Below, piece by piece: positions 2,622-31,320 of a stretch of DNA of 34,557 nucleotides. Positions within the stretch are counted from its first letter, which is position 1; each line of letters begins with the position of its first letter. A program made the translations under genes and the position numbers. The notes below the pieces were generated by a model. That model saw nothing but the letters and a program-made list of their open reading frames with translations. It was not told where the DNA came from and ran no database searches. Source of the stretch: a virus (lineage: Duplodnaviria > Caudoviricetes); IMG/VR virus record IMGVR_UViG_3300044615_001608, positions 1-34,557 of that record; one strand, given 5' to 3'.

Positions 2622-3551
2622 TCAAACGGGCTTGTCGAGCACCACGAGCCGGGTCCGCACGCCAGTCGGGACGAACGCGTCCGGACCATTGAACGCGTCG
2701 GCAAGCTCCTGGACGTACTTGCCGTGGTCCAACAGCAGCAGCCTGAACGCGTGCGCCTTCTGGTCGTTCCGATAGAACAACCCCTCTGACACAATTGCCA
2801 CCAACCGACCACCCGGGCGCAGGGATCTGAACGCGTGCGCGACGTGCTCGGCATCCTGCCCGTTCTCGAAAGGCGGGTTCATGAGCACGACGTCGATGCT
2901 CGCTTCCTCCACCCCGCACGCGAGAAAATCCTCGTTCTCGAAGGTGTGATCTTTGAGCCGGAGAACCTCGCAAAGCTGTGCGTTCCGCTCGATGCAAAGC
3001 ACGTTCGGAATCTCGGGGTGTCGCTCTCGCAGTCGATCCACGATCGACCCGATCCCTGCCGACGGTTCCAGCACGTTCCGGACGTCCGGCCCGATGTCCG
3101 CGCAGTCGATCATGAGGTCAACGAGCTTGGGCGGGGTGGGGAAGAATCCGGGGATGTTCCGTGCCCCGCCGCGGATCGTGCGGAGCAAGTCGGCAAGCTC
3201 GATTTCCCTGCTGTCCTCGGGCGGGCGCTCGGTCTTGAGCATCTCGCGGGCCTTCTCCGCCTGGTCCGGCTCAAGGTCGCCGTGCCATCCGCGCACGATC
3301 TCGCGGAGTTGTCGCCCCGATCGGATAGAACCGAGCGGGAAGGGCACGGGCGGGCGTTGCCAGAGGTCCGCGAGCTTCTCGGCGGCTCGGGAGGCATCAA
3401 GCAGGGCGAGCCCGTCTGAGGCCATCGACGCCGCGATAGAGGCGCGGCGCCTCGTGTGTCGCATTCGGCCGATCGGGCTGTTCATCTTCGCGTGAGCCTG
3501 CTTCCCCAGACTCTCCGCGATGCCGCGCCAGCGGGCGGATTGTGGGGTCAT
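2622..3551 (-). CDS. N6-adenine-type DNA methyltransferase with N-terminal extension
   Basis: FFPTP, motif I VLEPSAGIG, motif IV VLMNPPF, LRPGGRLVAI. Confidence 0.9.
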   Translation of the reverse strand: MTPQSARWRGIAESLGKQAHAKMNSPIGRMRHTRRRASIAASMASDGLALLDASRAAEKLADLWQRPPVPFPLGSIRSGRQLREIVRGWHGDLEPDQAEKAREMLKTERPPEDSREIELADLLRTIRGGARNIPGFFPTPPKLVDLMIDCADIGPDVRNVLEPSAGIGSIVDRLRERHPEIPNVLCIERNAQLCEVLRLKDHTFENEDFLACGVEEASIDVVLMNPPFENGQDAEHVAHAFRSLRPGGRLVAIVSEGLFYRNDQKAHAFRLLLLDHGKYVQELADAFNGPDAFVPTGVRTRLVVLDKPV

Positions 3552-3775
3552 TCGCCAGCCTCCTCAGCCTCAGCAACCTCGGCGTCAAAGTGGGATTTGG
3601 CGATGCGGGCGCACTCGTTGAAATCGTGGTTGTTTGCCTTGGCCCAATGCATGAGGTCGGCAAGGATGTCCGTGAGGGCACCTTCGTCGTCGTTTCGCCA
3701 CCGCGACCCGTGTTGATTGGCGTCGATCGCGTCTTCTGCTGATTGGATCCTGTCCGCGTTGGTTCGTTCGCTCAC
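3548..3775 (-). CDS. Hypothetical all-alpha protein (possibly MazG-like fold)
   Basis: LTDILADLMHW...DF...A..H...E pattern; overlapping start/stop with both neighbours; GGAGG RBS. Confidence 0.7.
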   Translation of the reverse strand: MSERTNADRIQSAEDAIDANQHGSRWRNDDEGALTDILADLMHWAKANNHDFNECARIAKSHFDAEVAEAEEAGE

Positions 3776-4062
3776 GATTCCACCTCCTCGGCGTTCTTGT
3801 CAAGCTCGGTTCCCGCGTAGCTGACCCACACCCAAGCGGCGACATATGTGCCGTTGTCGTCGCCTTCGGACAAGGCAGCGTCGTCGTCGATCTCAACCTC
3901 GCCGTCTTCCTGGTGGAGTTCCTTGGCCCACTTGCGGACCATTTCGGCGTGCGGCGGGTCCTTGAACCGTTCGAGAAGCTCGTCTGCCAATTGTTCCAGC
4001 CGATCAAACTCGGTGTTTCCTGCGGCGACAGTGTCCAAAAAATCTTTGATATCGGGGTGCAT
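3772..4062 (-). CDS. Acidic conserved phage hypothetical protein
   Basis: Start reassigned to ATG 4062 after CCAGGAGAA RBS; DGEVEIDDDA...GTYVAAWVWV. Confidence 0.75.
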   Translation of the reverse strand: MHPDIKDFLDTVAAGNTEFDRLEQLADELLERFKDPPHAEMVRKWAKELHQEDGEVEIDDDAALSEGDDNGTYVAAWVWVSYAGTELDKNAEEVES

Positions 4063-4132
4063 GGTGTTCTCCTGGTGGGCCGGGCATCGGCCAAGCTCGC
4101 CCGAGCCGTTTCCGGCGCGGGCGGGTGTGTTC
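4063..4132 (-). repeat. Early-gene leader repeat R4
   Basis: TAA, GAACACACC, CGCCCGCGCCG-GAAA-CGGCTCGGGCG hairpin, GGCCG-ATGCC-CGGCC hairpin, CACCAGGAGA. Confidence 0.85.
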
Positions 4133-4411
4133 TTACTCGTCGTTCTCGTCGGGCTCGTCGTTCTCGTCGCGCCACAGGGCCTCGATGCGGTCGGATTCCT
4201 CGAGCGCCTCCAAAGCCTCGTCATCGTCTTCGCCGAACCCGCTGTTCCCATACTCGCCGTCCGTCTCGGTGATAAGTCGAACGTCGCCGACAAGTGTCTC
4301 TCCTCGGCGAACCTTTGCCTTCGCCTCCTCGAACGTTTCCGCCTCGATGGTGTGCTCGAAGTAGGCAATACGGGTCACGGTCTGCGCTTCGCGAACGATG
4401 AACTTTGCCAT
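4133..4411 (-). CDS. Highly acidic hypothetical protein (92 aa)
   Basis: ATG 4411 after CAAGGAGAT RBS; IEAETFEEAKAKV motif; D/E-rich C-terminal half. Confidence 0.75.
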   Translation of the reverse strand: MAKFIVREAQTVTRIAYFEHTIEAETFEEAKAKVRRGETLVGDVRLITETDGEYGNSGFGEDDDEALEALEESDRIEALWRDENDEPDENDE

Positions 4412-4479
4412 GTGGATCTCCTTGCGCCCGGGCATCGGGCAAGCCTCGCCGCGCCGGTTTCCCGGGGCGGCGGGTGTGT
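4412..4479 (-). repeat. Early-gene leader repeat R3
   Basis: TGA, ACACACC, CGCCGCCCCGG-GAAA-CCGGCGCGGCG hairpin, GCCCG-ATGCC-CGGGC hairpin, CAAGGAGATCCAC, ATG. Confidence 0.9.
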
Positions 4480-5370
4480 TCAAACGGCGGTCGCTGCGCC
4501 GATCAGCGGGCGGAGCGAGTCGAGCGACGTGTAGAGCCCGACGATCGCGTCTAGTCCAAGCTCCTCGGCCATGTTGGGCCGGTCTCTATGCCTGACCGGT
4601 TGCGAGTACTGACCGGCGTCAAAAATGTCGGTCACGAGACAGACGATTCGGGCGAACAGCGGGGAGCTAACCGCGCCGATGCGTTCCAAGTCGACGGGGT
4701 CGGATGCGTGCTTGAGCGTGCACGCGTGTACGTAGTGCGTGCCTCTCCGGTCGCTGTTCTCTGTCTCGATGAGGGTGATTTCAACCGATCGCCCCTGCCG
4801 CTCGATGGTTTCCGCGATGGCTGCAAGCAAGCCCCCAACCCGCGCAAACTGCCCACCCTCCCATGCTCCGAGCGCGGTCGAATCAAGCCCGAGCCGGATA
4901 ACCTGGGACATTCGACCCGCAACCGAGCGGCGGAAGGGGCGTTCGTGCCCAACAAGCACCCGGTCAACGTTTGCTTCGTCGCCATCATCGCCCCACACGA
5001 GCCGGCGGCGGCGGCTTTCCGCCCAACCATTCGCCTCGATGGTTTCGACGAACGTCCCCCGATAGCTGTCTAGCTGGGCAAGGAACGTCGACGGCGCTCG
5101 CCCCTCTTCCATGGCGTTCCAAGCGTCTTCGAACGTTGGGAATTCTGGGTGACTGGTCCAAGGGCCATACCGATCCTGCGGCTTCGTCCCGCACTGCCCG
5201 AGCCACCATTCCGCGTGAAAACACCATTCCGCCAAGTCGTCGTAGTACCGGACAGCGAGCGGGATCGGGTTGGATGTCTCCGGGCGGTGGATCTGGGTCG
5301 CGTCGAAATGCCGCTCCCCTCTGATCTGGATTCTCCGTCTGCTGCCCCTGGTTGCGTTCGCTTTCATCAT
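4480..5370 (-). CDS. VWA-like (CobT-type) partner of the adjacent AAA+ ATPase
   Basis: Immediately downstream of the AAA gene; GDEANVDRVLVG, AIAETIERQGRSVEI, LKHASDPVD...SPLFAR motifs resemble phage AAA-partner proteins. Start reassigned after CCAAGGAGAT RBS. Confidence 0.65.
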   Translation of the reverse strand: MMKANATRGSRRRIQIRGERHFDATQIHRPETSNPIPLAVRYYDDLAEWCFHAEWWLGQCGTKPQDRYGPWTSHPEFPTFEDAWNAMEEGRAPSTFLAQLDSYRGTFVETIEANGWAESRRRRLVWGDDGDEANVDRVLVGHERPFRRSVAGRMSQVIRLGLDSTALGAWEGGQFARVGGLLAAIAETIERQGRSVEITLIETENSDRRGTHYVHACTLKHASDPVDLERIGAVSSPLFARIVCLVTDIFDAGQYSQPVRHRDRPNMAEELGLDAIVGLYTSLDSLRPLIGAATAV

Positions 5371-5427
5371 GGGTGGATCTCCTTGGTGAATCCGCGCCGC
5401 GCCGGTTTCCCGGGGCGGCGGGTGTGT
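5371..5427 (-). repeat. Early-gene leader repeat R2 (first hairpin only)
   Basis: 33 bp (5395-5427) identical to R3 (4447-4479), followed by CACCAAGGAGATCCAC; lacks the ATGCC hairpin. Confidence 0.9.
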
Positions 5428-6527
5428 CATTCTGCGAGCGCCTTAGCCTTCTCCTCGTCCGACCATCCGACCGTGAGACGGTCCAGAATCTCGGCGGTTG
5501 GCTTCCCTGCGGCGACCATGCGAGCGGCGGCTATGACCGAGCGGGTGCCCACAATCTGCCGGATCTTGTGACGTCCGATGTTCTCCCGGATCTTGCGAAT
5601 CCGCGCGAGGATCATCGAATCTGAGAGGATCGATTCCTCCAGCCTCGCGTCATATCCGACGTAGAACCGAGCGCCAGCGAATCGATCAAGCGTGGCAGCA
5701 TCGATGGGCGAGCGCCCGATATACTGAGCAGTCCCGCCCGTGCCCCATGTGTTGGCTGCGGCCACGATCACGGTATCGGCGTGGCGATTGATGATGCGGC
5801 GGGCGGGGTCATGGTGACGGGGAAGGAACAAGCGACCATTCGCAAGCGCGGCGTTCACCTGGACGAGAATCTCGGCGGGTGCCGAATCGATCTCGTCGAG
5901 CAGGTAGACCCCGCCCGCTTCGTAGGCCTGAACGAAAGCGGTCTCCTGATACTTTCCCTCGGCATTAATCCCGCCGACCAGCTGAGCGGCGGTCATGTCT
6001 GCGGCGAACGATTGCGCACCGAACGAGCGGCCGAGCGCCTTCGCGAGCGTTTCGGCTAGGGTCGTCTTGCCCGATCCGGCGGGACCGGAAAGCCAAAGGT
6101 TCTGGAACCCCATGGCAACGGCTTCTGCCAATTGTGCCAACTCGGGCCGGGCGTTTCGGATCTCGGGGCCCGTGGGCATGTCCCCGATCTGGAATCGGAT
6201 CGTCTGGGTCGGGCTGCTCTTGATCGATTCGACCAAGGTCCGCAAGCCGCAAACGTCCTTGGCAACGAGGTCGACGCATTCGCCAAGGGTTTCAACCTTG
6301 GCCGAAAGGGCTTCAACCTCGGCGGGCTTGACTGATCCAGCCAGACCCCGGATAGCTGCCGCAAGCGTCGCGGCATGGTCGTCGGTTTCGGCGGGCGTGT
6401 TCGTCCGCACGGGTGCGGCTTCTCGCACGGTGCGAGTGAACGGGATTGACCCTTGGGGCGTGTTGGATGGCGCATCCCCTAGGGGCATGCGTCGGGAAAG
6501 GCCTGGAGGTAGGGTGGCTGCTGACAC
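5427..6527 (-). CDS. AAA+ ATPase, MoxR/CbbQ/CobS-like
   Basis: Walker A GPAGSGKTT, Walker B YLLDEID, sensor AAANTWG, YIGR.PIDAATLDRF. GTG start at 6527 after CCAAGGAGAT RBS. Confidence 0.9.
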   Translation of the reverse strand: MSAATLPPGLSRRMPLGDAPSNTPQGSIPFTRTVREAAPVRTNTPAETDDHAATLAAAIRGLAGSVKPAEVEALSAKVETLGECVDLVAKDVCGLRTLVESIKSSPTQTIRFQIGDMPTGPEIRNARPELAQLAEAVAMGFQNLWLSGPAGSGKTTLAETLAKALGRSFGAQSFAADMTAAQLVGGINAEGKYQETAFVQAYEAGGVYLLDEIDSAPAEILVQVNAALANGRLFLPRHHDPARRIINRHADTVIVAAANTWGTGGTAQYIGRSPIDAATLDRFAGARFYVGYDARLEESILSDSMILARIRKIRENIGRHKIRQIVGTRSVIAAARMVAAGKPTAEILDRLTVGWSDEEKAKALAE

Positions 6528-6607
6528 GATTGAATCTCCTTGGTGCATGGCTTGGGGCATCCAAGCCGAATCGACCGAGCCCGGTTTCCCGGGGCCGGTC
6601 GGGTGGT
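6528..6607 (-). repeat. Early-gene leader repeat R1
   Basis: TGA, ACCACC, CGACCGGCCCCGG-GAAA-CCGGGCTCGGTCG hairpin, GGCTTGG-ATGCC-CCAAGCC hairpin, CACCAAGGAGAT. Confidence 0.9.
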
Positions 6608-6904: not shown

Positions 6905-6954
6905 GCGTGTCTCCTTGGTGTGCTCCAGCATGCGGCATGCATGCCAGATAGCAC

Positions 6955-7316: not shown

Positions 7317-7331
7317 TGACACAATGTGTCA
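7317..7331. promoter_or_regulatory. Perfect palindrome TGACACA-A-TGTGTCA (15-bp form of the dispersed motif)
   Basis: Seen directly; related 15-mers at 21447-21461 and 31268-31282. Confidence 0.7.
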
Positions 7332-7418
7332 CCCAAACAGCCTCACAAGCTGCCTCTAAGTGTCGGGATTCCCTGCACTTACGTGAGGATTGTGCCAGCA
7401 TTTGTGCCACGATTCGAC

Positions 7419-7649: not shown

Positions 7650-8321
7650 TTATCCGGACGTTGGGAGACTTCCCCACTGCTCGGCCATTGCTTGTGCGAC
7701 GCCGGGGTATGTGTTGCTTCGAAGTTCTTGGCGGAGCGGGCTTGGCCCGAGCTTGTTCTGTCCGCTGTTAGTCTGGTTGCCCCATCGCGGCTTGGGCTTG
7801 TTTTCTCCGTTGCAATTGGGGCAGCCGTACTTGTCCGTGTTGGGAACTACGAGCCCGCAGCAAACAAGCCGCGGCAAGACGGGGTTGGTCGCCACGAGCT
7901 TTGGCAGGTTCTCAAGCCACAGGCATGTGGCTTTGCTGGCGTCGTCTCCGAACTGCCATGGCTGGATGATTTGGTCGGGCCGGCGGTATCGCGTGCTGAG
8001 GCAGCCGATCGGGTTCTCCATGGCTTTGCGGCGAAACGGGAGGTCCATCATGGCGATGGCAAATGTGGCAGCGGCGTCGGTCTTGGCTTGGCGTTCGGGC
8101 CTTCGCTTGTTCCAGTGCAGGCCGGAGCACGCGAGGTAGGTGCAATCGGGATGCATGATGCCGAGATCGAAGCCGGTCCAGTCCACGGCCATGTAATCGC
8201 CTTGGATGTGCGGGCCGGGGCGGCGGGATGGTTTGAGGTCACAGGACACGGCGTCGTGCCCGCGGGCGATGAACGCGTCACGGATGATCCCGGAGCATTC
8301 GCCAAGGATGGCAACTTTCAT
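7650..8321 (-). CDS. Phage-type DNA cytosine-C5 methyltransferase
   Basis: GECSGIIRDAF..RGHDAVSCD, motif IV-like HPDCTYL, motif VI ENPIG, IIQPWQFG, KATCLWL, RSNTYPGVAQAMAEQW. Confidence 0.85.
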   Translation of the reverse strand: MKVAILGECSGIIRDAFIARGHDAVSCDLKPSRRPGPHIQGDYMAVDWTGFDLGIMHPDCTYLACSGLHWNKRRPERQAKTDAAATFAIAMMDLPFRRKAMENPIGCLSTRYRRPDQIIQPWQFGDDASKATCLWLENLPKLVATNPVLPRLVCCGLVVPNTDKYGCPNCNGENKPKPRWGNQTNSGQNKLGPSPLRQELRSNTYPGVAQAMAEQWGSLPTSG

Positions 8322-8584: not shown

Positions 8585-10320
8585 GTGCGAAAGAAGTCTC
8601 CGTGCTCGATGGTGGTCGCGTCCTGCTGGCGGAAGAAGATCCCGATGGCTTCGTCGATCTCGGCCTGGATGCGGGAGTCTCGTTCGTCCGCGGCCGCGGC
8701 GGTCGGGTCGATGCGGAGCATCTCGTTCAGGTCCGCGATGGCGGCGGCGACCACTTCGATCTCGTCGTCGTGGTCGAGCGAGTCGCGGTCGCGGGTGATG
8801 CGGGTAAGCTGGTGCTGCAGGTCCTCGTTGCGTGCGGCGGACGGGTCGATGACGACGCGGTGGGCGAGGAGGGCCGGCTCGAGGGCTCCGATGATGCGGA
8901 GTTCCTTCTGACCGCTTGAGGGCTTGTCGTCGACAACGCATCCCCAGCCTTGCGGGTACGCGGCGTTCTCGCCGGGTCGGAGGGCGAGTCGGTTGAAGTC
9001 GGTTTGGAAGAGGTAGCCGTAGGCGTCGCCGCCGAAGTTGCCTTCGACCGTGGCGGTGTTGACGCCGAGCGAGCGGGCGATCTGGGCGACACGGGCGCGG
9101 GTGGTGTCGGTGGCGCCGCCGGCGTAGGCGGAGACGTGCTTGATGAAGAAGACGCCGTGGAGGTGGCCGACGATGCCGATAGAGAGCTTGTCTTTGCCGC
9201 GGCCCGCGGGGTCGATCCGCATGTGGGTGTGCGTGTACGGGAGGAGCTTGTCGGAGACGTGGATCGGCCGGTAGAACCGATCGGTGTCCCAGCCGAGCGA
9301 GGGGATGTCGGTGGCAGAAGTGTCACCCTTGGAGTTCTGTTGGCCCCAGACGATCTCGGTCGGCGCGAGGTGCGGGTGGCACGGGTGGAGGATGAAGTCG
9401 GCCAGGCGGAGCGGGTAGCGGTCCTCGTCGGCGATCTGGGCGATGAGCTTGTACTGCTGGGCGTAGTAGACCTTGCCTTCGGCCTTGCGGTCGTTGATGT
9501 AGGACCGGCCGAACCGGTGCGGCATGGTCGGGTCGCCGACCTGGACTTCGCCGCGGGCGAGCTTGTCGGCGAGCATCGGGGCGTAGCCGAGCGTGAGTTT
9601 CTGCTCTTCGGGATCCAGGTGCTCGAGCGACCATGTCCGGAACGTGTACCCGCGCTTTGAGAGCTTGATGTAAACCGATTCCTCGTGGTGGAAGGTGCCG
9701 ACGTCGACGATTCGACCGCCCGATCCCCGGCCCCTGGTGTCGAACGACGCGACGGCCTTCAGCTCCTTGATTCGCTCATCGAGCAGTGTGCGGGCCTCGA
9801 GCGTGCGGGTGTTCGTCTTGGTTTCGATGTCGTCGGCGTAGACGACGTGGGCACGGCCGCCAGTGATTTGCGATTCGATGCCCTGGGCGTGGAGCGAATA
9901 GTCGCGAGCGTTCTCACTGCACGGCCCGGTGTGGAACCACCGCTCCGAGTCCTTCTGCCATGTGTTCTTCTGGGGAACGAGGTGCCGGAGAAACGGCACC
10001 GTGCTGAGCCACCGCCGAACAAGCTGGACGGTCTTCTTGGCTTCGCCGTCCGTCTTCGAGAGGATCTTGACCTTCCACTGCGGATCAAGGAAAAGGTCAC
10101 ACGCGGTGCTCGCCGCGGTCACGACGTGCGTTTTGCCGGTGCTTCGCGGAGCGAGCACGCCGCAATACTGAGGCCCGGTGCGGACCCAATCAAAGATGTC
10201 AAGCTCGACGTCGCCGAGTGGGGCTTTGTTCAGCGGATCGGTGAACTTCCACAGCTCGCGAAGGAAGAAGATGTGGTCCTTCTCCAGCCGCGCGAGGTAT
10301 CGGTACGTGACGTCGCTCAT
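8581..10320 (-). CDS. terL: Terminase large subunit (T7 gp19-like)
   Basis: Walker A APRSTGKT, QITGGRAHVVYADDIE Walker B, nuclease IDPAGRGKD, VEGNFGG, QKELRIIGALEP, LDHDDEIE. Confidence 0.95.
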   Translation of the reverse strand: MSDVTYRYLARLEKDHIFFLRELWKFTDPLNKAPLGDVELDIFDWVRTGPQYCGVLAPRSTGKTHVVTAASTACDLFLDPQWKVKILSKTDGEAKKTVQLVRRWLSTVPFLRHLVPQKNTWQKDSERWFHTGPCSENARDYSLHAQGIESQITGGRAHVVYADDIETKTNTRTLEARTLLDERIKELKAVASFDTRGRGSGGRIVDVGTFHHEESVYIKLSKRGYTFRTWSLEHLDPEEQKLTLGYAPMLADKLARGEVQVGDPTMPHRFGRSYINDRKAEGKVYYAQQYKLIAQIADEDRYPLRLADFILHPCHPHLAPTEIVWGQQNSKGDTSATDIPSLGWDTDRFYRPIHVSDKLLPYTHTHMRIDPAGRGKDKLSIGIVGHLHGVFFIKHVSAYAGGATDTTRARVAQIARSLGVNTATVEGNFGGDAYGYLFQTDFNRLALRPGENAAYPQGWGCVVDDKPSSGQKELRIIGALEPALLAHRVVIDPSAARNEDLQHQLTRITRDRDSLDHDDEIEVVAAAIADLNEMLRIDPTAAAADERDSRIQAEIDEAIGIFFRQQDATTIEHGDFFRT

Positions 10321-10967
10321 GCGGAAAGCTGCTCGCCGAACTGCCTGAGAATCTCGGTGGCTTGAAGCAAGATTTGGCTACAACGCTGGCGGCTGCACCC
10401 CATGACTACGCCGATCTGCCCGAGCGTGAGGCCCTTCATGCGGAGCCGAATCGCCTCGGCCTGCTGCTTGGTGAGGATGTGGGACGCCTCGTCGATGATG
10501 TCGATCGCGTCCAGGCTGTCGCCAACGTCCGGTCCTTGCGGCGCCTCGAAAGGCATCACGCTGTCGTTCCGGCCATGGCGCTCGATCGACCTCGGGAACG
10601 AAGCGTTGCAAGTGAGCTGCTTGGTTTTCTCGGACGACCGGTACAGCGTTCGGTACGGCGTGCGGCGACACACTCCACCTTCTTCCCAGATCGAGCCGCG
10701 AATCAGAGAGGGCATGTGTGCACCGATGTACGTCGAGAACGCAACCCCGCGGGCCGGGTCGAATCGTTCAACGAATCGCAGGCACAGAAGGAACGCCCGC
10801 CCAAGGTGCTCGTACGGATCCGAGTTCGGCACGGCACGCGAAATGTGCAGGATGAGCATGCCTTGCCACCGCATGATCAGCTCGTTCCGCGCGGCAACGT
10901 TGCCAGCCTGAGCCTCGCGGATCAGCGGCAAATCACGCTCAAATGTCGATGCGAAAGCTGCTGTCAC
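10317..10967 (-). CDS. Sigma-70-family RNA polymerase sigma factor (regions 2 and 4)
   Basis: AQAGNVAARNELI, FDPARGVAFSTY, region 4 HTH LTKQQAEAIRLRMKGLTLGQIGVVMGCSRQRCSQI. Confidence 0.88.
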   Translation of the reverse strand: MTAAFASTFERDLPLIREAQAGNVAARNELIMRWQGMLILHISRAVPNSDPYEHLGRAFLLCLRFVERFDPARGVAFSTYIGAHMPSLIRGSIWEEGGVCRRTPYRTLYRSSEKTKQLTCNASFPRSIERHGRNDSVMPFEAPQGPDVGDSLDAIDIIDEASHILTKQQAEAIRLRMKGLTLGQIGVVMGCSRQRCSQILLQATEILRQFGEQLSA

Positions 10968-11275: not shown

Positions 11276-11607
11276 CGTTCCCTCCGTACCCTGCATGCCC
11301 TGACCTGAGCGAAAGACCCGAGGCAGTGGCACCCTCCGCGTGGAGGATGCGACAACTCTGACCCTCGCGATGAGCCCGTCGTTGTGGTCGCGTCGTTGAA
11401 CCATTCCGGCCGTCAGCTCGGCCCACTGCCCGACGCGAGTGGAGTGCGCTGGCAAATGTGTCACCCCGGAGGGACTCACATTCTGTCAACGGCTGGAAGT
11501 AGGTGCTGTCTTCCAGGCTTGAAAAAGAGGCTGATGCAAGCGTCAAAGCTGCTTGCTGAGCACCGACCATGCACGCATGCGGATGGTGGCCGGACCACGA
11601 ATTGATT

Positions 11608-11645: not shown

Positions 11646-11659
11646 GCGACTGACTCAAA

Positions 11660-11733
11660 TAGCGGGAGGCAGACTTGAACTGCCGACCTGTGGATTATGA
11701 GTCCACCGCTCTTGCCAACTGAGCTATCCCGCA
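11660..11733 (-). tRNA. tRNA with CAU anticodon (probably elongator Met; Ile2 not excluded), CCA not encoded
   Basis: Minus strand TGCGGGA TA GCTC-AGTTGGCAA-GAGC G GTGGA-CTCATAA-TCCAC AGGTC GGCAG-TTCAAGT-CTGCC TCCCGCT A forms a full cloverleaf. Confidence 0.93.
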
Positions 11734-11798
11734 AACGTTCGTGCCCACTTGCATGAGCACGAACGCACCTGGAGAGGAGATCCAGCGAAGACGATAGC

Positions 11799-11849: not shown

Positions 11850-14800
11850 TCAATCCTCATATGACGTGTCGGGAAGCCCTTCGGCCCACCGGTCGAGAGC
11901 GTTCTTGAGCCCGACGATGTTCGGCACAAGCGTGCCCTGGATCGCACGAAGGTCCTGCCGCGAGAAGTCGTAGTGTGGGATGCCCGGCGCGAGCATCGCG
12001 CGGGGCACGCGAAGAGGGTCCTTCGGGAACCCCATCCTGTCGAACCAGTCGATCGTCGGGTTCCCAAGCAGGAACCCGCCTTGCAAGCCCGTCGTGCGGG
12101 AGAAGCTGAACACCGGCTCTTGGCGACCAATGTCGGACACGAGCGTGTCGATCGCCGTGGGCACGAACGCCGAGTACAGCGAACGCGAGAACGCCGCTCG
12201 GAGCACCATGTCAAGCTCGAGACGTTCCTCCAAGAACGCCTTGCGGTCACGCCGGCCGGCGGATTGCAGAAGGGTGTTCGCGATGTAGATAAGGGCGCCG
12301 CCGGCCGCGGACGCCGCGAGCGTGCGGATCATCTGGCCGTCGCGGGCGTACAGCTCCGGCCCGATCGTCGCCTGGGCGGCGACCGCCATGCGCCGGAACT
12401 GGAAGAACACCTTGCCGACCGGGGAGTTTGCCACCATCGGCATCGCGGAGTCCGGCACACTGAGGATCGACCTGGACGCGTTCCGCCGGAGCGAGTCTTG
12501 GAACGCGATCCGAACATCGTGCGGCCACTTCTCCCAGACGTACCGATCAAGCAACCCGCCCGGCTTGTCGACCCACGCCGCGCGGCCCGGCTTGCGAATC
12601 TCGGCGACGATCTTCGCGGCCATTTCTGGCGACAGTGTGTCGATCGCCAGACGCCTCGTGCTCGGCAGGTGCCCGGAGTATGCCCACCCCGCCCACTGCT
12701 GCTGCTTGGTCCGCATCACGGCCAAGCGAGATGCGTCGGTGAGGAACGAGATGCCGGCAACGTCAAACGCCGCGCGAGCGCCGCGGCGGAGGTTCCACTC
12801 CGCGGCCGACTTACCGACTGGCTGCCCAAGGCTTTCGCCGGCCCGCCGCGGGATGCGCGACGCCGCGCGGTCGACCGCGATGCCCATCTGCGCGATCTCG
12901 CGGGCCTGCTGGCTGGACATCTTTCCGGTCCTCGCGAGCGTGATCACCTCTCGAATGGCGGGGAAGAGGTTGGTGATGACCCGCGGTCCAAGCTCGCCTG
13001 TGCGGGCGATGACTTCGCCGACCTGCAGAAGACCGGTGCCCAAGTTTGCCATGAGCCGGAAGCTCTGGAACGAACGCACCGCGTCGACCATTCGCGTGAA
13101 CCCGGTTTCAGTCCTGGAGGGCAGGCCGGCGATGAGGTGCAGGGCTTCGCGGACGCGGTCCAGGTCCTCCGAATACTCCGCCGCGGTGAGCCCAACGCTC
13201 ATGGCGTCCTCGCGGATTTTCGTGAGGATGCTGTCGATCCCATTGACGCGGTCGGTGCCAAGGTCCGGCGCCGCGGAGAAGAGCCGCGACGCCTCCGCGA
13301 GCGCGGCCGACCCGTGTGCCGCGCGGTTGTAGTTCTTGAACAGCGTGTAGAGGTTGGACTCGATCAGGTCCTCGATCCCCATCTCGGACCCGTCCGCGAG
13401 CTTCCATCGGTACGTCTCATCCAGGTCGATTCGCTCTTTCAGGCGGGAGGTGTACCCCGTCGTGATGCCGTCGTCGCCGTCGTAGCTGTCGGTGTGGCCC
13501 GCGTGGTCGATGATTGTCTGGGCCAGCCGGATAGCCTCGTCGCGGTCGGTGATCGTCCCCTTGGCGAGAATGGCGTCAGCGAACCGCTCGCGGAGCTGCG
13601 CGTACCCCGCGGCACGGTCGCCGTCAGCGAACGTCTGGGGATCCTTGCCGGCGCGGCCCATGCGGAGAGCGGCGTCGTCCATCGCGGGCCGGATCCACAT
13701 GCGGTTGAGGTAATTGTCCAGGAGCCCGACGTCAAGCCCGTGGTCCTTGAGCATCTGCCCAAGGTCGTCGTACATCTTGCGAACCGCCGACCGAACCGAT
13801 CGGATGTTCGGATCCGTGGGATCCTCCCCGCGGCGGAATGCCTTGCCGGCGGCGATCTCAAACTCCTCGCGGTTCATCGGCTTGGTGCCCGCCCTCTTGG
13901 CCTCCTCGCGGTGGGCAAGCCAAGCAGGCTTGACAGCCTCCTCGTACGCGTACTCGTTCGCCGCGACGTTGTGCCCGACCGATTCGTGGAGCCCCACCAC
14001 CGACGGCGAACCGTCCTTGGAAGGCATGAAGTCAAACGCCAGGACTTTGCCAGCCATGCGCATGAGCGGCGACTTGCTCTTCCCAAGCATGCCCGCGATG
14101 TCGAACCGCCACCAACTGACCCGGCGATTCTTGCCAAGGATCTTGATCTCGGCCGTCTGATTGATCGATTCGGGCACGCCCGACGCGAACATGGACCGGT
14201 GCGCGTCCAGGTTGTACGTGCGGGTGGCTGGCACATTTGCCACCGCGTCGGTCGCCCCCGACTCCTTCGCCGGCTCCATTGTTGAGAATGCGTTCTCAAC
14301 TTGCTTGGCAAACAGGGCCTCGTCGTACTGGCCGGCGTCATTGGTGGAGGCTTTGAGGATCTCCATCGCACGGGCTTCGACCTCGGGGTTGTCGGCCCCA
14401 AGCAGCTCGCGGACCATCACGCGGATCTGCTCCACCGCGCGCACGCCCGCCTTGAACGCTTGGGCGGCGACGATCATGGCGTTATCGACGATGCTCGGGG
14501 TGAACTCGTCGATGCCAAGCCGCTGCCCCGGCTTGGCTTTCTTCTTCGCCTCGGCGATGTCCTTGGCCCGCTGTGCTTTGTTGGCCTTGGCCTTGGCGAT
14601 GACCTTGTCCGCGGCGCCGATCAGCTTCTTGGCGGTGGACGGCTTGGGCACTTTGCCCCCTCGGCGAGCAATCTCCGCCTCGATCGCCAAGACCTCTTTG
14701 GCCTGCCAGCCGCCGGGATTCTTGCCCGCCATGGTCTTGAGCTGCTCAAAGGGGCCAGTGTTGCCCGCGAGAATGTTGTCGACCTGCTTTCCGATGTCGT

Positions 14801-20118: not shown

Positions 20119-20673
20119 TTATGGCACCCCTGTCAGGAATTGTGCGGCGGCTTCGCCCGCGAGCAAGGCCGAGGACTTCTCCGCGGCGGTCAGAGCGGGA
20201 CCGAACGCACCGAGCGAAGTCAACCCGGAACCCAGAGAAAGCCCGGTCGACAAGCCCTCCAGCCCGCCAAGCAGGCCGGCGACAAGCGGGTTCGATCGCT
20301 GCGAGCGGAGTCGAGCCACCGCCGCGTCTCGCTCGCTGATCACCCTGGCACGGTTGTTGGACAGGTTCGTGTTGATCGTGGCAACGTTCGTCGCCGCGTC
20401 GATCATCGTCTGCCGCTCTTGGGACTCGAGGGTGTTCCCCGATTCGCTCCGAGCCACGCGGATTCGGCCAAGGATCTTCTCCGCGTCGGAAACCTGCCGG
20501 CGCCGCTCGAGGGCCGCGCTCGACGCGAGCTGCGAAAGCGAGGCATTCGCCGAATCGTTCGCGCTGGCGATGCCGCCCGCGACGGCACTGTTCCCGGACA
20601 TTGACGAGAATGCCCCGCTCGCGGTGCCCGCAACCGTCGTGGCCGCAGCCAGAGTGAACGGATCAAAGCTCAT
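20119..20673 (-). CDS. Internal virion protein (T7 gp14-like)
   Basis: MSFDPFTLAAA start; Ala/Gly/Ser-rich; GRIRVARSESG; 184 aa directly after tail tubular B. Confidence 0.75.
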   Translation of the reverse strand: MSFDPFTLAAATTVAGTASGAFSSMSGNSAVAGGIASANDSANASLSQLASSAALERRRQVSDAEKILGRIRVARSESGNTLESQERQTMIDAATNVATINTNLSNNRARVISERDAAVARLRSQRSNPLVAGLLGGLEGLSTGLSLGSGLTSLGAFGPALTAAEKSSALLAGEAAAQFLTGVP

Positions 20674-21275
20674 TGCCCGCCCTCCTGGCTGCTATGGTCA
20701 AGCTCCCAATCGAGTGACACAATTGTCATCGGAAACGGCGTTTCATTCTCGATCCGAATGACACATTTGTCAGCTCGCCCCGTGTGGCGGGCGGTCAAAT
20801 GGTTCGGCATCGCTCGGTCCGTGAGGCCGGCCGTCTCGCTGTAAACCGCGGTCCCAAGGAACGATTTCGTCCGGGACGCGCGAAGCGGCGGCGCGTGCGG
20901 CGTCGTCCGGATCGTGTACGCGTTCGTGCGTTCGTGGCTCACGCGAAGGCTCATGATGGTCGTGTGTCCCCGAACCATCGCGGACCCTTGGCGGTCGCGT
21001 GCGAACGGTCGCGTCGGCGTCAGATACGCCTGGAACCGCCTGCCGATCAGCACAAGGCCCGCGGTCCAGTCGCCGGTGAGCCGAACCTCGCTCCCGAGAG
21101 ACGCGGTCGGAATGAACACCTTGCCCGCATCCTCGCCGAACGCGTCGGACAGCACGATCGTGTCCAGCGAAGGATCAAAGGACGGAAGGGTCCACCGAGT
21201 CGAGCCGTCGTGGTAGGTTCCGGCAAGCAGTACCCGCCGATCCAGACGCGGGATGAACGGGAATGTGGTGCTCAT
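20670..21275 (-). CDS. C-terminal portion of tail tubular protein B encoded as a separate gene
   Basis: VLIGRRFQAYLTPTRPF..., IRIENETPFPMTIVSLDWE resemble the gp12 C-terminus; ATG is 1 nt after the upstream TGA. Confidence 0.7.
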   Translation of the reverse strand: MSTTFPFIPRLDRRVLLAGTYHDGSTRWTLPSFDPSLDTIVLSDAFGEDAGKVFIPTASLGSEVRLTGDWTAGLVLIGRRFQAYLTPTRPFARDRQGSAMVRGHTTIMSLRVSHERTNAYTIRTTPHAPPLRASRTKSFLGTAVYSETAGLTDRAMPNHLTARHTGRADKCVIRIENETPFPMTIVSLDWELDHSSQEGGQ

Positions 21276-21276
21276 G

Positions 21277-23712
21277 TCATGGGACCGCGATGATCGTTGA
21301 GAAGTACCCGCCGGGTCCGGCCGGGACAACCGCGCCCGAAGGATTCGTGACCGTGACGTCGCCCGTGGCGCCCGTGGAGCAGCTTGCGACAAGCTCCAGG
21401 AAGATGCTCGAGACGCCGTCGATCGTGATTTCGACGTCTGCCGCGGTGCCACATTGTGCCACGTCCTCAATGTAATTTTCGTCCAGCGGAGATGCGTCTG
21501 CGATGGCCGGACCAACCCCAAACACGTCGATCGCCCACCCTCGGTGTGCGTCGTACACGAGAAGATAACAGTTGCTCCCAATCATTGCAATGTCGGAGAT
21601 CGCCGCGTCCTCGAATCCGATGCGGGTCCAAGCGGACTGGATCCTCGCGTCCCGCTCTTCGTCGCGGGTTGACTGGTAGAGCTTCAACTCGCTCCCGGAG
21701 AAGTTCCCCTCATCCGGAAGGGCGATGATCACGCCGTCGTTGGGGCTGGTGACGATGCGGCGCAAGCTGTCTGGGATCAGCCGGGGGACGTGCGGAGTGA
21801 TCGACACGGCAAGGTTGGAAGCCTGAGCGTCGTAGTACCGGTACTCGTAAATCTCGGTGACGTCGTCTTTCTTTCCGGGGAAGATGATCGAATCGCCGGC
21901 CGCGGCGGGCCGCACGCGGCTCAGCGTGTAGTAGTTCGTGCTCGCGGTGACGGCCGCGGTCGTCGGCGTGAACAGGTCCGGAGAATTGATCTCGAACTGC
22001 TGGCCCGCTTTGGTGAAGACCACCACGGTCTTTCGGAACGGGACCAAGAAATCAACCTCGGTCACGCGGTCGCCGGACATGCTCAGGTGAATCGGGTCGG
22101 ATTCCGCCGTCTCCGCCGCGTTGTCCATGAACAGGTTGAACAGGTCCTCGGCCTGCGAAGTGTCAACATCCTCGCCGGCCCCGAACATCAATCGCCCGCG
22201 GGCTCGCGTCAGATCGGCGATCGGCCGCTCCTCGGCGATGAAGTCCGGAATCGGGTTGCTCAGCTCATCTCCGCTCGGCCGCGAAGTCCAGTCGCAAGTG
22301 CTCACGTCGAAGACAGCCGGCGTGCGGCGGTCGCCCACGGACGTTCGAACCATCTGCACCGGCATCTTGGTCGGGTCGGGACGTGCTTCGGGCTGGTTCG
22401 GCGCGGTCTGCCTCGTCCACCGGTCCTCGATGTCGAGCGTGTCCTCTGTCGGCGACCCGGCCCCCGCGGTGATCACGTACTGCCCCGCGGTCGCGGAGAA
22501 GGGCGCGGTCGACGCGGTGTAGTTGTAGTCGCCGGCCACCGAAAGGTTCCGGGCGGGGAAGCACGTCGCGGCGGATCCGCGGTACGGGCTGATGATCGTG
22601 AAGTACCCGCCGGCGCCCGCGGGCGTCCACTTCACGATGGCGTTTCGGACCTCGCCGCCGGAAGATCGCAGACCGGCCTGGATGTTGAGCGCGACGTCGA
22701 GCATGTCTTCCGCGCCAAGGCCGGGACGCTCAATCGTGACAACGCCGAGCACGCCGATCGCGTCGGTAGAGGTGTTGCTGTTGTTGCTGACGGACAGGCC
22801 GGTCGTCGCTTCAACGAGCACGATCTCGTCGCCGTTTGTCTTGCTCGCGATGGAGTACCACATCGGAGTGTGGCCGGTCCCGCCCGTGATGAAGATTTGG
22901 TCGCCGTCGCGGTGCGTGTACGCCGAGAACGCCCCGGCTTTGGTCAGTGTTCGGTTGGTGGCATCCCACGCCCCGCCCGTGATGTCCATGTTGAGGCGCT
23001 GAAAGCCGATGCCAATTGTGCCACGGAGCGGGAGGCCGGCACCGTACGTCTCGTCGTCCCAATACCCGTTGCTGCCCGCCCACCACTCGCTGTTCGAACC
23101 GGCCCCGTTCTGGAAGAATCGGATCTCGGCAAAGGTGCCGTCGCCGCCTTCCGACAGGTCGTAGAGGAAGTACCCCGCGGCTTCTCCGGTGACGTCTTCC
23201 CTGGTGCGGTGGTACGTACCGCTTGCCGGCGAGTCCGCGAGCATGACGAAGTAGTCGCGGTAGGTGTTGTCCACCAAGTATGTTGGTGACGCGAGCGAGC
23301 CGGTCGGCTTCTTGTTGTTGAGAATGAAGGTCGTGTCGCCGATCGTCACGAACTGGAGGTTGTCGGCGTCGGCATCAAGGGCGTCAAGATACGCCTGGGC
23401 ATCGCCCGAGACGTTGACCGTGGCCTCGAGCCCGTCGATCTGGAAGACCCTGAGAACCCCGTCGCCGTAGACCACGAGGTACTGCTCGTCTTGGTCGCGC
23501 TCGATCGGGTGAAGCCGAAGGTTCGCGTTGGCCGGGGCGCCGGGCACGGACGCCACGAACCACGAGCCGTATCGCTCAACACACCCTTCCCTCGCGGAGA
23601 ACAGGACGTTCCAAGCGTCCTCAACCTGCCCTGACCGCCGCACTTCTGCCGGCTGCTGCGAGATGCCTTGGAAGACCAAAGGCACGCGGTCAGACTGATT
23701 CAGGGTCAGCAC
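21277..23712 (-). CDS. Tail tubular protein B / nozzle (T7 gp12-like), N-terminal and central part
   Basis: GISQQP..R..GQVEDAWN, TIGDTTFILN, MPVQMVR, WTSRPSGDELSNPIPDF, SDPI, ITPHVPRLIP, IQSAWTR. Confidence 0.92.
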   Translation of the reverse strand: MLTLNQSDRVPLVFQGISQQPAEVRRSGQVEDAWNVLFSAREGCVERYGSWFVASVPGAPANANLRLHPIERDQDEQYLVVYGDGVLRVFQIDGLEATVNVSGDAQAYLDALDADADNLQFVTIGDTTFILNNKKPTGSLASPTYLVDNTYRDYFVMLADSPASGTYHRTREDVTGEAAGYFLYDLSEGGDGTFAEIRFFQNGAGSNSEWWAGSNGYWDDETYGAGLPLRGTIGIGFQRLNMDITGGAWDATNRTLTKAGAFSAYTHRDGDQIFITGGTGHTPMWYSIASKTNGDEIVLVEATTGLSVSNNSNTSTDAIGVLGVVTIERPGLGAEDMLDVALNIQAGLRSSGGEVRNAIVKWTPAGAGGYFTIISPYRGSAATCFPARNLSVAGDYNYTASTAPFSATAGQYVITAGAGSPTEDTLDIEDRWTRQTAPNQPEARPDPTKMPVQMVRTSVGDRRTPAVFDVSTCDWTSRPSGDELSNPIPDFIAEERPIADLTRARGRLMFGAGEDVDTSQAEDLFNLFMDNAAETAESDPIHLSMSGDRVTEVDFLVPFRKTVVVFTKAGQQFEINSPDLFTPTTAAVTASTNYYTLSRVRPAAAGDSIIFPGKKDDVTEIYEYRYYDAQASNLAVSITPHVPRLIPDSLRRIVTSPNDGVIIALPDEGNFSGSELKLYQSTRDEERDARIQSAWTRIGFEDAAISDIAMIGSNCYLLVYDAHRGWAIDVFGVGPAIADASPLDENYIEDVAQCGTAADVEITIDGVSSIFLELVASCSTGATGDVTVTNPSGAVVPAGPGGYFSTIIAVP

Positions 23713-25683: not shown

Positions 25684-25691
25684 GCGTTCTC

Positions 25692-26150: not shown

Positions 26151-26725
26151 TAGACGCCCCCGGCGGCGATGGCTTTGAGCACGTCGATGATGCCAGGGCC
26201 GACCGCTTCCACGATCTTGCCCAAAGCCTCATTGTCGCTCAAAAGCGTCTTGGCAGATTCGGCGTCGCGCGCGATCATCACGGGTCCGAGCCGATCCCAG
26301 ACCTCATTCTGCGCCTTGACCACCGGCGAGGCGAGTGTCGAGAAGGTGAACCCCTCGAGTTTCGTGCCGTCCGGCATCGTCGCTTTGTCGACCGAAAACG
26401 TGACGTCCGTGTCGCTGGCGATCTTGGCTTCACGCCCAAAGAACGGGAAGAGCATCACGCGCGAGGTCGGCCCGAGTGACTCGACCACCGCCCCGTTGTC
26501 GTCGAACATGCGGATGTACTTGCCGGGGACGCTGGTCTCGCTGTCCCATGTTTCCCCGTCTTTCGACAGGCTCACGCGGTTTGGGCTGGCGTTGCGGGAA
26601 GCGACGGCGCCGTCGGGCTTCTTGTCCCACGACGATCCAATCTGCGACCCCGAGCACCCAGCCAGGACCATTCCGAGAATCGCCGCACCAAGCACCGAGA
26701 CCGCACTGCGTTTGAGAAAGCTCAT
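26150..26725 (-). CDS. Lipoprotein (possible spanin)
   Basis: Basic N-terminus, hydrophobic core and lipobox LAGC; amphipathic C-terminal helix. Confidence 0.75.
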   Translation of the reverse strand: MSFLKRSAVSVLGAAILGMVLAGCSGSQIGSSWDKKPDGAVASRNASPNRVSLSKDGETWDSETSVPGKYIRMFDDNGAVVESLGPTSRVMLFPFFGREAKIASDTDVTFSVDKATMPDGTKLEGFTFSTLASPVVKAQNEVWDRLGPVMIARDAESAKTLLSDNEALGKIVEAVGPGIIDVLKAIAAGGV

Positions 26726-27417
26726 GGGATTCCCTTGATGTCCTTCGCAAGATCGATCGCCCGAAGAACCGCTTCGTCGACCCGCTCGCGAGCTGTGGGC
26801 GTGTTAGCACCCGCAAAGATGATGATGTCGTTGCTGCCCGCAGCCTTGATCTGCATGGCAATTGTGTCACGGTCATGGATCACGACGTCGTTGCCGTACG
26901 GCTCGTCAACTCCCATTTGTGCCTGTACTTCGACGCAGAAAGCGGAGCGGGTCTTGGAGGCGCGGCCGACCTCTTCCAGCCGGGCGGAGCGGTATTTGGC
27001 CCACGGCAGGTAGTTCCGCGGCGATTCGTAGCCGGGCCGCGGGTACCCGTCGAGCGAGAAGCTCGCGTACTGGATTGGCTCGCCGGGCCGCGTCGGCCGG
27101 CGAAGTGCCATGACAAGCCGGTTGAGCGGGTGGTCGTACTGGCGGAGTCCGCAGTCGATCCCGTACGCGAACACGCGCCCGGTCGAAGGCCAACCAGACT
27201 TGAAGATCGACGGCCAGTGCTGGAGCGGCGTGGGCACGATGTTGTCCGGCTCGAAGTTGAGAAGACGCCCGTTCGGCCTAGCTGTCTGCGCCGACACGCT
27301 GGGACGCCTTGGCGTGCCCGCTCGCCCGCAGTCCGCGTGCTCGATCGAGAGAATGCCGGCGGGTAGCTGCAAGGCCGGAGCCTGCAACGGGAAGGTGTAG
27401 CAGACGCCGATGGTCAC
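26722..27417 (-). CDS. Hypothetical protein between holin-like gene and lipoprotein
   Basis: 231-aa ORF overlapping both neighbours by 4 nt; no motif recognised. Confidence 0.65.
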   Translation of the reverse strand: MTIGVCYTFPLQAPALQLPAGILSIEHADCGRAGTPRRPSVSAQTARPNGRLLNFEPDNIVPTPLQHWPSIFKSGWPSTGRVFAYGIDCGLRQYDHPLNRLVMALRRPTRPGEPIQYASFSLDGYPRPGYESPRNYLPWAKYRSARLEEVGRASKTRSAFCVEVQAQMGVDEPYGNDVVIHDRDTIAMQIKAAGSNDIIIFAGANTPTARERVDEAVLRAIDLAKDIKGIP

Positions 27418-27653
27418 TGCTTGGCCCCGGCCTGCTCGCTGCTGACCTTGTTGTCACGCGCGACAATCAAGCCGCCGCCGGTGACGATCGACACCGCCGA
27501 CACGAGCTTGACCGCCATCTCGGGAGAGATTCCCAGGTCGTCGGCAAAGAGGAGAACGAGCGATAGGACGATCGTTACCAGACCGGCGAGCTTCGTGCGC
27601 CACGAAGGCCCGAACCACTCGGCGATCTTGGCGGGGACGGTTCCGGTGCTCAT
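27414..27653 (-). CDS. Holin-like protein (2 TM, 79 aa)
   Basis: Start reassigned to ATG 27653; SWRTKLAG, two TM segments, GLIVARDNKVSSEQAGAK ending typical of small phage holin-like proteins. Confidence 0.7.
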   Translation of the reverse strand: MSTGTVPAKIAEWFGPSWRTKLAGLVTIVLSLVLLFADDLGISPEMAVKLVSAVSIVTGGGLIVARDNKVSSEQAGAKQ

Positions 27654-27907
27654 GGGGTCCTCCGAATCAGCGTTTTGACGTCGTTGCGGATCTCGTTGAC
27701 CGTTTCTCTGAGGTCGCTGATTCGCTCCTTGAGGTTGGCGATCTCCGCGTCCTGTCGCTGGTTGGCGTACTCGACGTCGTTCTTCGCCTTGATCGCGACC
27801 CCGCCGGCGCCAAGAAGACACACGCACGCGCTCAAGCCCATGCCGAGCGTCATCGAGAAGCGGGTGTTCTTGCTGAGAGAGCCTGGAACTGGTTTAGAGT
27901 CGGACAT
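27650..27907 (-). CDS. Small membrane protein with C-terminal coiled coil
   Basis: One TM (LGMGLSACVCLLGAGGVAI) followed by IANLKERISDLRETVNEIRNDVKTLI. Confidence 0.65.
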   Translation of the reverse strand: MSDSKPVPGSLSKNTRFSMTLGMGLSACVCLLGAGGVAIKAKNDVEYANQRQDAEIANLKERISDLRETVNEIRNDVKTLIRRTP

Positions 27908-30137: not shown

Positions 30138-30166
30138 CGAGTTTGCTCCAAAGGTGGCGAGAGTGA

Positions 30167-30781
30167 TCAGACGCCGAAGCGGTACAGGTACTTCGCCGCG
30201 GAGGCGCCCGTGCGGTCCGTCTCAAGCACGAACCCATGCACGTTGCCCGTCTCGGGGACGAACAGTGTGGCTCCGGCAGACCCCGTGAACACCAACGGGG
30301 CCACTCCACCAAAGGCGTTGGTGATCGCGGTTCCGTAGGCAGCAGTCGTCACGCTGAGAGTGTCACAGAGCTTGTCGGCCGACGTCACGCCGTAGACTGC
30401 AACGCCGGCGGTCGAGCTGAGGGTTGCCGTACCCGAACAGAAGAGCTGGAGGCAGTAGTCGTCGATCCCGCCCGTGTCGTTGTATGTCACGGTCACTGCC
30501 CACAGCTTGTAGTCGAACGTCGTCGCCGCGGATCCCTCGCCATACGGGAGGAACTCGAGAAACCGCGGCTTGTTGCTGTCGGTGCCGAGCACGATCATCC
30601 CGGTCGGCTTGGTCGCGGTGCGGCCGGCGGAAAGCGTGAACGCGTCCTGTGTCGCGTACGTGGTCGGCCCGCGGAAGTAGCCGTCGGACCGCAGCGGCTC
30701 CATGGCCGGGCGGAGCGCCAGCATCGAGGCTGTCGTCGCCAGCCCTGCCACAATTGCCAAAAGTGCCACTTTGGTTCGCAT
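30167..30781 (-). CDS. Hypothetical beta-rich protein with N-terminal signal/anchor
   Basis: Start reassigned to ATG 30781 after GGGAG RBS and the terminator; MRTKVALLAIVAGLATTASMLA. Confidence 0.7.
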   Translation of the reverse strand: MRTKVALLAIVAGLATTASMLALRPAMEPLRSDGYFRGPTTYATQDAFTLSAGRTATKPTGMIVLGTDSNKPRFLEFLPYGEGSAATTFDYKLWAVTVTYNDTGGIDDYCLQLFCSGTATLSSTAGVAVYGVTSADKLCDTLSVTTAAYGTAITNAFGGVAPLVFTGSAGATLFVPETGNVHGFVLETDRTGASAAKYLYRFGV

Positions 30782-30795
30782 CGTCGTTCTCCCTG

Positions 30796-30829
30796 AAACA
30801 AAGAAGGAGGCTTGGTTTCCCAAGCCTCC
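30796..30829 (-). terminator. Intrinsic terminator downstream of the capsid genes (T-phi-like position)
   Basis: GGAGGCTTGG-GAAA-CCAAGCCTCC-TTCTTTGTTT. Confidence 0.85.
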
Positions 30830-30855
30830 AACCACCAGAAACACGGTTGTTGCCG

Positions 30856-31248
30856 TTAGGTCTGCGTTCCGACCACCGCCCATGCGGAGCCGGTGTTGAT
30901 GTAGAGCTTGTGCGTGCCGGAGACGTTCACGACCGCCAGCGCGCCGGAGTATTCGGCCGCGTGAGTCGGAAGATTGGCCGCCGCCGCAAAGATTCCAAGG
31001 TACAGCACCGACTTGCCCTTGCCGGTGAGTTCGAGGTGGACGTTCGTAGCGGTGGAAGCCGCGTTGTCGTTGTCCGCCTTGATCGTCACCTTGCGGTCGG
31101 TGGCGTTGAGCGCCGCCCCGTTGGCGGTGATCTCGATATGGTCGCTCTTGTCCAGATCCTCCGCCCCCGTGGTCGTGAGGTTCTTGTTGGTTTCGGAGTC
31201 GACCGTTCGCACGATGCCCTGGGGGCAGAGCGTGTTGTTCTTCGGCAT
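30856..31248 (-). CDS. Putative capsid accessory/decoration protein
   Basis: Lies between the capsid gene and the terminator; KLYINTGSAWAVVGTQT ending recalled from small virion proteins. Confidence 0.6.
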   Translation of the reverse strand: MPKNNTLCPQGIVRTVDSETNKNLTTTGAEDLDKSDHIEITANGAALNATDRKVTIKADNDNAASTATNVHLELTGKGKSVLYLGIFAAAANLPTHAAEYSGALAVVNVSGTHKLYINTGSAWAVVGTQT

Positions 31249-31320
31249 CTGATTCTCACTTTCTGGGTGTCACAATGTGTCACCCTCTGACTGCTCTTGA
31301 AACTGCTGGACGACGCTGGT

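Follow-up and report, generated by a model that had tools for sequence, protein, structure and literature searches.

A dispersed dyad shares its half-site with the attachment-site repeats of a temperate T7-like phage and may be read by the phage integrase

The stretch of DNA considered here (the window; 34,557 nucleotides, IMG/VR record IMGVR_UViG_3300044615_001608) covers 34.6 kb of a temperate T7-like phage with a complete genome of 45.6 kb, over which a near-palindromic word of 14 or 15 bases is scattered, mostly within genes. Genes in the window encode T7-type portal, capsid, nozzle and ejection proteins and the terminase, together with two methyltransferases, an AAA/VWA pair and a sigma-70-like protein. 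The whole phage is represented by a second record, G001 (IMGVR_UViG_3300043803_001976; 45,709 bp with a 124-bp terminal repeat), which is 99.99-100% identical to the window and may stem from the same sample. The 11 kb that it adds hold the end of a tyrosine integrase gene, two divergent genes for ribbon-helix-helix (RHH)-like proteins, an exonuclease, ERF, a ParB-like protein, a helicase, an HTH_17 protein and, immediately before the portal gene, a T7-type RNA polymerase whose best match is that of Pseudomonas phage LUZ100 (30%).

A sequence-only reading of the window had described the word as TGNCA-WWTG-TGNCA. Its spacer peaks are real (pairs of TGNCA separated by 0-14 nt number 13 at N4, three at N5 and at most one at any other length), and the consensus is tighter than written, comprising a fixed half, TGVCACAWT (the half-site), followed by TGBCA in the 14-mer or GTGNCA in the 15-mer. 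All ten exact 14-mers and three 15-mers listed in that reading are present at their positions, as are near-matches at 3985 and 30755 (one mismatch) and 9312 (two); a further one at 3840 lies beyond two mismatches and was dropped. Over the whole genome (45,585 bp), 18 strict sites were counted (fourteen 14-mers and four 15-mers), 17 of them away from the attachment (att) region, with 13 inside genes, two at stop/start junctions and three between genes. The last figure is close to the expectation from a coding fraction of 89%, so the non-coding copies, once offered as support for a regulatory role, are by themselves no proof of a promoter function. Nine of the ten 14-mers first noticed do lie in coding sequence, once the start of gene 30167-30781 is extended over its signal peptide (the exception is at 11450). 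Sites occur in both orientations without bias (8:6 over the whole genome, P = 0.79), and an RNA signal or a promoter for the phage polymerase was therefore rejected; a sigma-54 promoter was rejected on spacing, relative to its consensus. The intervals between sites, described before as mostly 2-4 kb, show no greater regularity than random placement would give (Greenwood P = 0.12 for 18 sites).

The excess over chance is large. The automatically modelled genes (30,885 bp) contain eight 14-mers and one 15-mer, whereas the average over 2000 synonymous resamplings was 0.004 14-mers, with never more than one and not a single 15-mer, and the average over 2000 shuffles of codon order was 0.0005 14-mers; the motif thus survives the codon-preserving control that the sequence-only reading had proposed, and its guess of well under 0.1 chance 14-mers agrees with a Markov expectation for the window of 0.003-0.006. 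Likewise, the sites are AT-rich within GC-rich genes, as that reading had observed: of the 50 third codon positions that fall within sites, 30 carry A or T, versus 18% over all genes, and rare codons are forced. That the word arises by chance, or as a by-product of protein sequence, is refuted by this excess with amino acids held fixed, and by the sites' different reading phases and two orientations.

The half-site is identical to the direct repeat that flanks the phage attachment core, a feature beyond the window, and hence invisible to the sequence-only reading, that supplies the principal clue. This core consists of 45 bases of tRNA-Gly(TCC), the reverse of its 3' half, and lies right after the integrase stop codon; three tandem half-sites precede it, inside the last integrase codons, and one follows, all in the same orientation (four words in the att region, versus 0.31 in shuffles). 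The third repeat, next to the core, matches the 14-mer without any mismatch. Arm sites of lambda-family integrases likewise flank a tRNA core on either side as direct repeats, and their readers have a three-strand-plus-helix N-terminal domain (PMC3448106); the att-flanking repeat is very probably an integrase arm site. P2-type arm sites number at least two per side (PMC3448106), whereas one is found here on the far side, and two in a prophage remnant described below. Known arm sites are confined to the att region; in this phage, dyads recur every few kb and 13 of 18 are intragenic.

All catalytic residues of the integrase (R202, K233, H293, R296, H318 and Y327) are present, and in its structural model (predicted local distance difference test, pLDDT, 92) residues 6-54 form three strands and one helix, as in a lambda-like N-domain. 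Against full-length lambda integrase, the model aligned over residues 5-340 with a Z score of 18.8; for the N-domain alone, the top match was the HPI integrase arm-binding domain 3jtz (Z 5.7, root-mean-square deviation 1.4, 49 aligned residues). No second such arm-binding domain was found elsewhere in the phage genome. Since the core follows the stop codon, the integrase gene remains joined to its upstream operon after integration. A separate sequence, CCTAAC, separates the core from the arms on either side (L003:832-837 and 967-972; also in L016, L160 and L162), and is possibly a helper-protein site; in 400 kb of G004, a host-class genome introduced below, it showed no enrichment at higher Markov order.

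Table 1. Coordinates (window numbering, unless otherwise indicated) of the dispersed sites and of the two candidate binders encoded in the window.
Feature	Position	Strand	Context
Tyrosine integrase (359 aa), first 285 codons, candidate binder	1..855	-	End, att core and arm repeats at G001:14795-15013
RHH2, 59-aa likely ribbon-helix-helix protein, rival candidate binder	1943..2122	-	Upstream of integrase
14-mer TGACACAATTGCCA	2787..2800	+	Inside DNA methyltransferase gene 2622-3551
One-mismatch copy	3985..3998	-	Inside small gene 3772-4062
14-mer TGGCACAATTGGCA	6126..6139	-	Inside AAA ATPase gene
15-mer palindrome	7317..7331	.	Non-coding block after terminase region
Tandem half-site pair, period 12, arm-like	7388..7409	-	Same non-coding block as 7317; missed by the sequence-only reading
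14-mer	8057..8070	-	Inside second methyltransferase gene 7650-8321
Two-mismatch copy, weak	9312..9325	-	Inside large terminase gene
14-mer	11450..11463	-	Intergenic, between tRNA-Met and likely small terminase gene
14-mer	14229..14242	+	Inside 1942-aa internal virion protein gene
14-mer	20715..20728	+	Inside nozzle C-part gene 20670-21275
14-mer	20759..20772	+	Inside nozzle C-part gene, 44 bp from 20715 site
15-mer	21447..21461	.	Inside nozzle gene 21277-23712
14-mer	23010..23023	-	Inside nozzle gene
14-mer	26856..26869	-	Inside unannotated gene ending at 26722
14-mer	30746..30759	+	Signal-peptide codons of gene 30167-30781; one-mismatch copy overlaps at 30755-30768
15-mer	31268..31282	.	Spacer after major capsid gene

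Related elements carry the same word at comparable places. For example, it flanks the core in G003, a related phage whose integrase is 45% identical, and in a 717-bp remnant in G004, and it stands at both ends of an integrated 12-kb island in G006 (integrase 30% identical). In another locus, L170, a tandem word follows an integrase homologue. Counts beside the cores or integrases of these relatives are 2-4, versus shuffle means of 0.25-0.8, and other repeated words were read by eye beside the cores of more distant integrases (L155, L159 and L162). Three observations are new here: the half-site is the att-flanking repeat, the core-proximal repeat is a 14-mer, and the same word is found at the cores of three other elements. 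The literature searched, consisting largely of open-access main texts, contains no mention of this word or of arm-type sites spread along an entire phage genome.

Some of these elements merit description in their own right. The G006 island (L284:3293-15525) carries metal-efflux genes and is bounded by 45-bp att repeats with the arm word. At L170:1590-1700, the place of the tRNA core is taken by an AT-rich site, which we take to be dif-like. At L182:650-2810, the promoter of an integrase homologue (30%) and the DNA immediately downstream hold several copies of the word; a tRNA core was not found there.

GTDB genomes contain 12 loci that match the 45-base core exactly, of which 11 bear the label of a Phycisphaerae lineage and one that of Planctomycetota, which points to Phycisphaerae as the predicted host class, although the exact host was not found. 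One of the carriers, G004 (Tepidisphaera sp.), holds the 717-bp remnant, which has a core at either end, a 56% homologue of RHH1, one of the divergent RHH-like proteins of the phage, and near-identical att flanks. Besides the att arms, this remnant (L016:3001-3789) holds nothing but a small membrane protein and the homologue of RHH1 (a repressor candidate), and it looks like an immunity cassette that the host retained when the prophage was lost. Among cultured phages, there was no DNA match to window positions 1-25000 and no match to the integrase.

Host genomes give little sign of a host motif. In a tally of 401 Phycisphaerae genomes, which includes the unpublished G400 (one copy), 96 have any 14-mer and none has more than five, so that the count in candidate hosts called for by the sequence-only reading speaks against a host origin. 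The 14-mer is absent from four genomes that carry the 45-base core, G004 among them, and 400 kb of G004 contain a single copy of the 9-base half, versus 1.4-2.1 expected. Given these low counts and the lack of enrichment in G004, the motif belongs to the phage and not to the host. Of the first 40 host-genome copies listed, none is near an integrase homologue and two are near a tRNA or T-arm; these listed copies look like chance hits, and the dyad is thus not a general att feature. A reader supplied by a host of an unsampled Phycisphaerae lineage, or some other phage protein, might still be imagined. Within a single phage, host factors such as IHF in lambda commonly bind att and packaging sites as well as switch promoters. 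The scarcity of the 14-mer in the class, its absence from G004 despite the remnant of a close phage there, and the single half-site copy make such a reader quite improbable.

The reading that we favour is that the phage's intact integrase would bind the dispersed sites through its N-terminal arm-binding domain, each dyad accommodating an integrase dimer by way of two arm domains. Bound integrase would then form orientation-independent roadblocks along the genome, damping stray prophage transcription and keeping the prophage silent, which would matter given that the T7-type polymerase gene immediately precedes the virion genes. The sites ignore orientation and gene position, yet they are written into genes singly, suggesting that cover along the DNA has been selected. 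Their arrangement varies (tandem at 10-12, inverted at 14-15) and would therefore suit a small tethered domain. Judged from sequence, the chances are about even that the integrase, and not another protein, reads the dispersed copies with two arm domains per dyad. That it may both read them and silence the prophage is put forward tentatively, and so is the broader proposal that a catalytically intact integrase might have been co-opted as a genome-wide DNA coat, its arm site rewritten as dyads into genes, such that one enzyme recombines and silences.

Support for a role in transcription comes from G003, where seven words lie in the 151-bp repressor/cro (cI-like/cro-like) promoter region (shuffle mean 0.55) and three more at the promoter after the terminase. 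These positions link the word to transcription control, and one protein probably reads both att flanks and promoters in this phage family. Repression by an integrase through its arm sites has a precedent in KplE1, whose IntS represses its own promoter in this manner (PMC2951348).

The integrase could also bind the dispersed sites without silencing anything, as a sink or a scaffold. Decoy sites might soak up integrase during replication, blocking re-integration and sharpening the excision switch, or the sites might serve as anchors that loop or compact the phage DNA. Sites that are indifferent to orientation and gene position and absent from predicted promoters would fit this use, as would an integrase gene that stays with its upstream operon after integration. 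A non-coding array would presumably be cheaper than many substitutions in genes, however, the G003 promoter clusters point to transcription control, and no literature was found on decoy sites with an integrase; the sink or scaffold is unlikely on balance.

A different reader might be an RHH protein, either RHH2 or the divergent RHH1/RHH3 switch pair, binding the two TGNCA boxes as a dimer of dimers; the boxes are separated by about one helical turn, TGNCA has a two-fold symmetry of its own, and three RHH-like genes are present (Atlas scores 0.90-0.94, leads only). Such a protein would act as both repressor and recombination helper, the dual role documented for Cox and Apl in P2-like phages (PMC3448106). 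Moreover, RHH2 shares an ISVR strand with the RHH protein at the cro position of G003, where the promoter with seven words is located, and RHH2 is as lineage-restricted as the dispersal, with one protein-database homologue (70%) and, in IMG/VR, this phage only. This restriction says little, because small RHH proteins are easily missed. The word's position on both sides of the core resembles that of arm sites, and it also flanks the G006 island, where an RHH profile search gave no match. In addition, no dyad lies at the RHH1/RHH3 divergent promoters, and the conserved CAWT spacer is asymmetric. An RHH reader is accordingly regarded as doubtful.

The dyads might otherwise load the phage's own ParB-like protein, which could slide along the DNA as KorB does and thereby silence the genome or organise it. 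This protein (304 aa, encoded in the part of G001 beyond the window) has a ParB_N domain (PF02195, E 7e-8) and a weak helix-turn-helix (HTH) match (E 0.046), and the length and near-symmetry of the site suit a dimeric HTH protein. It leaves the identity with the att repeat unexplained, though, and two related phages with full-length homologues, L194 (31%) and L170/L195 (25%), come without a dispersed 14-mer family, though the recognition helices of these homologues are different, and L194 and L195 are distant and partial loci of 22 and 15 kb. Loading of the ParB-like protein is distinctly improbable.

Several points weigh against the integrase as a dispersed silencer. At the level of the protein, the arm domain has an intermediate Z score, with unrelated folds scoring less than 1 away from it, an AP2 domain also matches, and roadblocks stop T7-type polymerases poorly. 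At the level of the word, 13 more distant homologues of the integrase, all in host genomes, mostly have no copy beside their core, and the second half of the 14-mer is a poor arm word. The orthologous arm in the G004 remnant is without the second half of the dyad, which is therefore dispensable for recombination. The promoter counts in G003 are inflated by the overlap of TGACA with the -35 hexamer, and the P values for att and promoter regions are optimistic because these regions were picked after the words had been seen. The phage's own switch region has only one word (P = 0.21), and no dyad was found at three predicted sigma-70 promoters in the two regions scanned.

The narrow distribution of the dispersal also counts against this reading. 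None of 63 related loci, found by homology of polymerase, capsid or integrase (several redundant, all distant at 22-58% amino-acid identity, and most partial), has the dispersed 14/15-mer, an outcome that the sequence-only reading had listed as refuting and that speaks against generality; the dispersal is known from one genome. Because five of these 63 records hold integrase homologues, the integrase family alone is no predictor of dispersal.

Other searches gave a similar picture. The whole 38.7 kb of G003 holds no dispersed 14/15-mer. A scan for the exact word TGACACAATTGCCA, covering 25 of the 64 IMG/VR parts (about 330 loci expected overall), returned at least 120 loci, none with a second site, 40 of these 120 being short; a second, 15-base word was found at 108 IMG/VR loci, with more than one site in this phage only. 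A de novo search of 17 loci found no dispersed 14-mer family above background (4-5 bins) except in this phage (7). The words AACCACCA and CACCTACC in L170 and L172 were rejected as unrelated; they are located before start codons. Close relatives are known as proteins without DNA, the closest being homologues of the integrase (P0024, 85%, and P0025, 66%), of RHH2 (P0127, 70%) and of the capsid protein (P0002, 62%); one of these, P0025, ends in Q-L-P-T, the peptide encoded by the att dyad, which is a hint only. Finally, 11 lake-water DNA sequencing runs contain the phage, with no RNA run among those listed, and reads from four low-share runs on two stretches showed no variant at any site, at a cover too thin to speak of conservation.

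Comparison with known systems helps to place the motif. One counterpart is MrpR (YopR/SroF), the integrase-fold master repressor of Bacillus phage SPbeta, whose element, SPBRE, is likewise repeated across the prophage; MrpR has lost recombinase activity and its sites are in promoter regions (PMC10516654). In contrast, the integrase described here keeps its catalytic residues and attachment site, and its putative sites are mostly intragenic. MrpR aligns only from residue 66 of this integrase, that is, without the arm domain. The stoperators of L5 and other Cluster A phages are similar in number, with about twenty sites over a temperate genome and a proposed block to elongation; they are asymmetric 13-mers, oriented with transcription, found in promoters and short intergenic gaps, and read by a two-HTH monomer (PMC9283540). 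The sites of the present phage are near-dyads, without orientation and mostly coding, and PHROG and Pfam scans of 48 and 16-17 open reading frames, with no dedicated profile search, gave no HTH stoperator repressor. KorB with its OB sites in RK2, and ParB with parS, also use palindromic sites that act at a distance (PMC11790492), and this phage encodes a ParB-like protein; here, however, the dyad is imperfect and tied to the att repeat, and the ParB homologues of relatives come without such sites. Finally, LUZ100 combines a T7-type polymerase and virion module with a tyrosine integrase, but the part of its description available reports a MarR-like regulator and a polymerase promoter motif, and no dispersed dyad (PMC10134795). 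Taken as a whole, the suggestion that a protein binds along the genome holds up well insofar as a binding motif for a phage protein is concerned, to judge from its sequence properties, while the analogies with stoperators and with matS or host sites fail and that with parS is minor.

The phage genome has other features that deserve mention. A sigma-70-like gene (window 10317-10967) lies between the terminase genes, alongside the T7-type polymerase, and there are genes for tRNA-Met and tRNA-Gln (window 11659-11734; L003:4393-4467). The nozzle protein is split into two open reading frames (window 20670-21275 and 21277-23712), and several genes separate the two parts in G003. Lastly, a 39-base GC-rich hairpin element occurs in four copies in one orientation (window 2583-2621, 4092-4130, 4441-4479 and 5389-5427) at junctions of small accessory genes; these copies could be processing sites, promoters or cassette joints.

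These findings bear on the question of how temperate T7-like phages hold off a self-amplifying polymerase cascade. If the integrase reads the dispersed sites, this would represent a new route to silencing and a step on the way from recombinases to repressors; it would supply a missing intermediate between recombinases and dead integrase-fold repressors such as MrpR, with the arm domain used in place of the core-binding domain. It would also offer a testable pair, comprising a 62-residue domain and a 14-base site, and a simple screen suggests itself, namely a search of other prophages for scattered att arm words. The work also opens up a nearly unstudied group of phages of the Planctomycetota.

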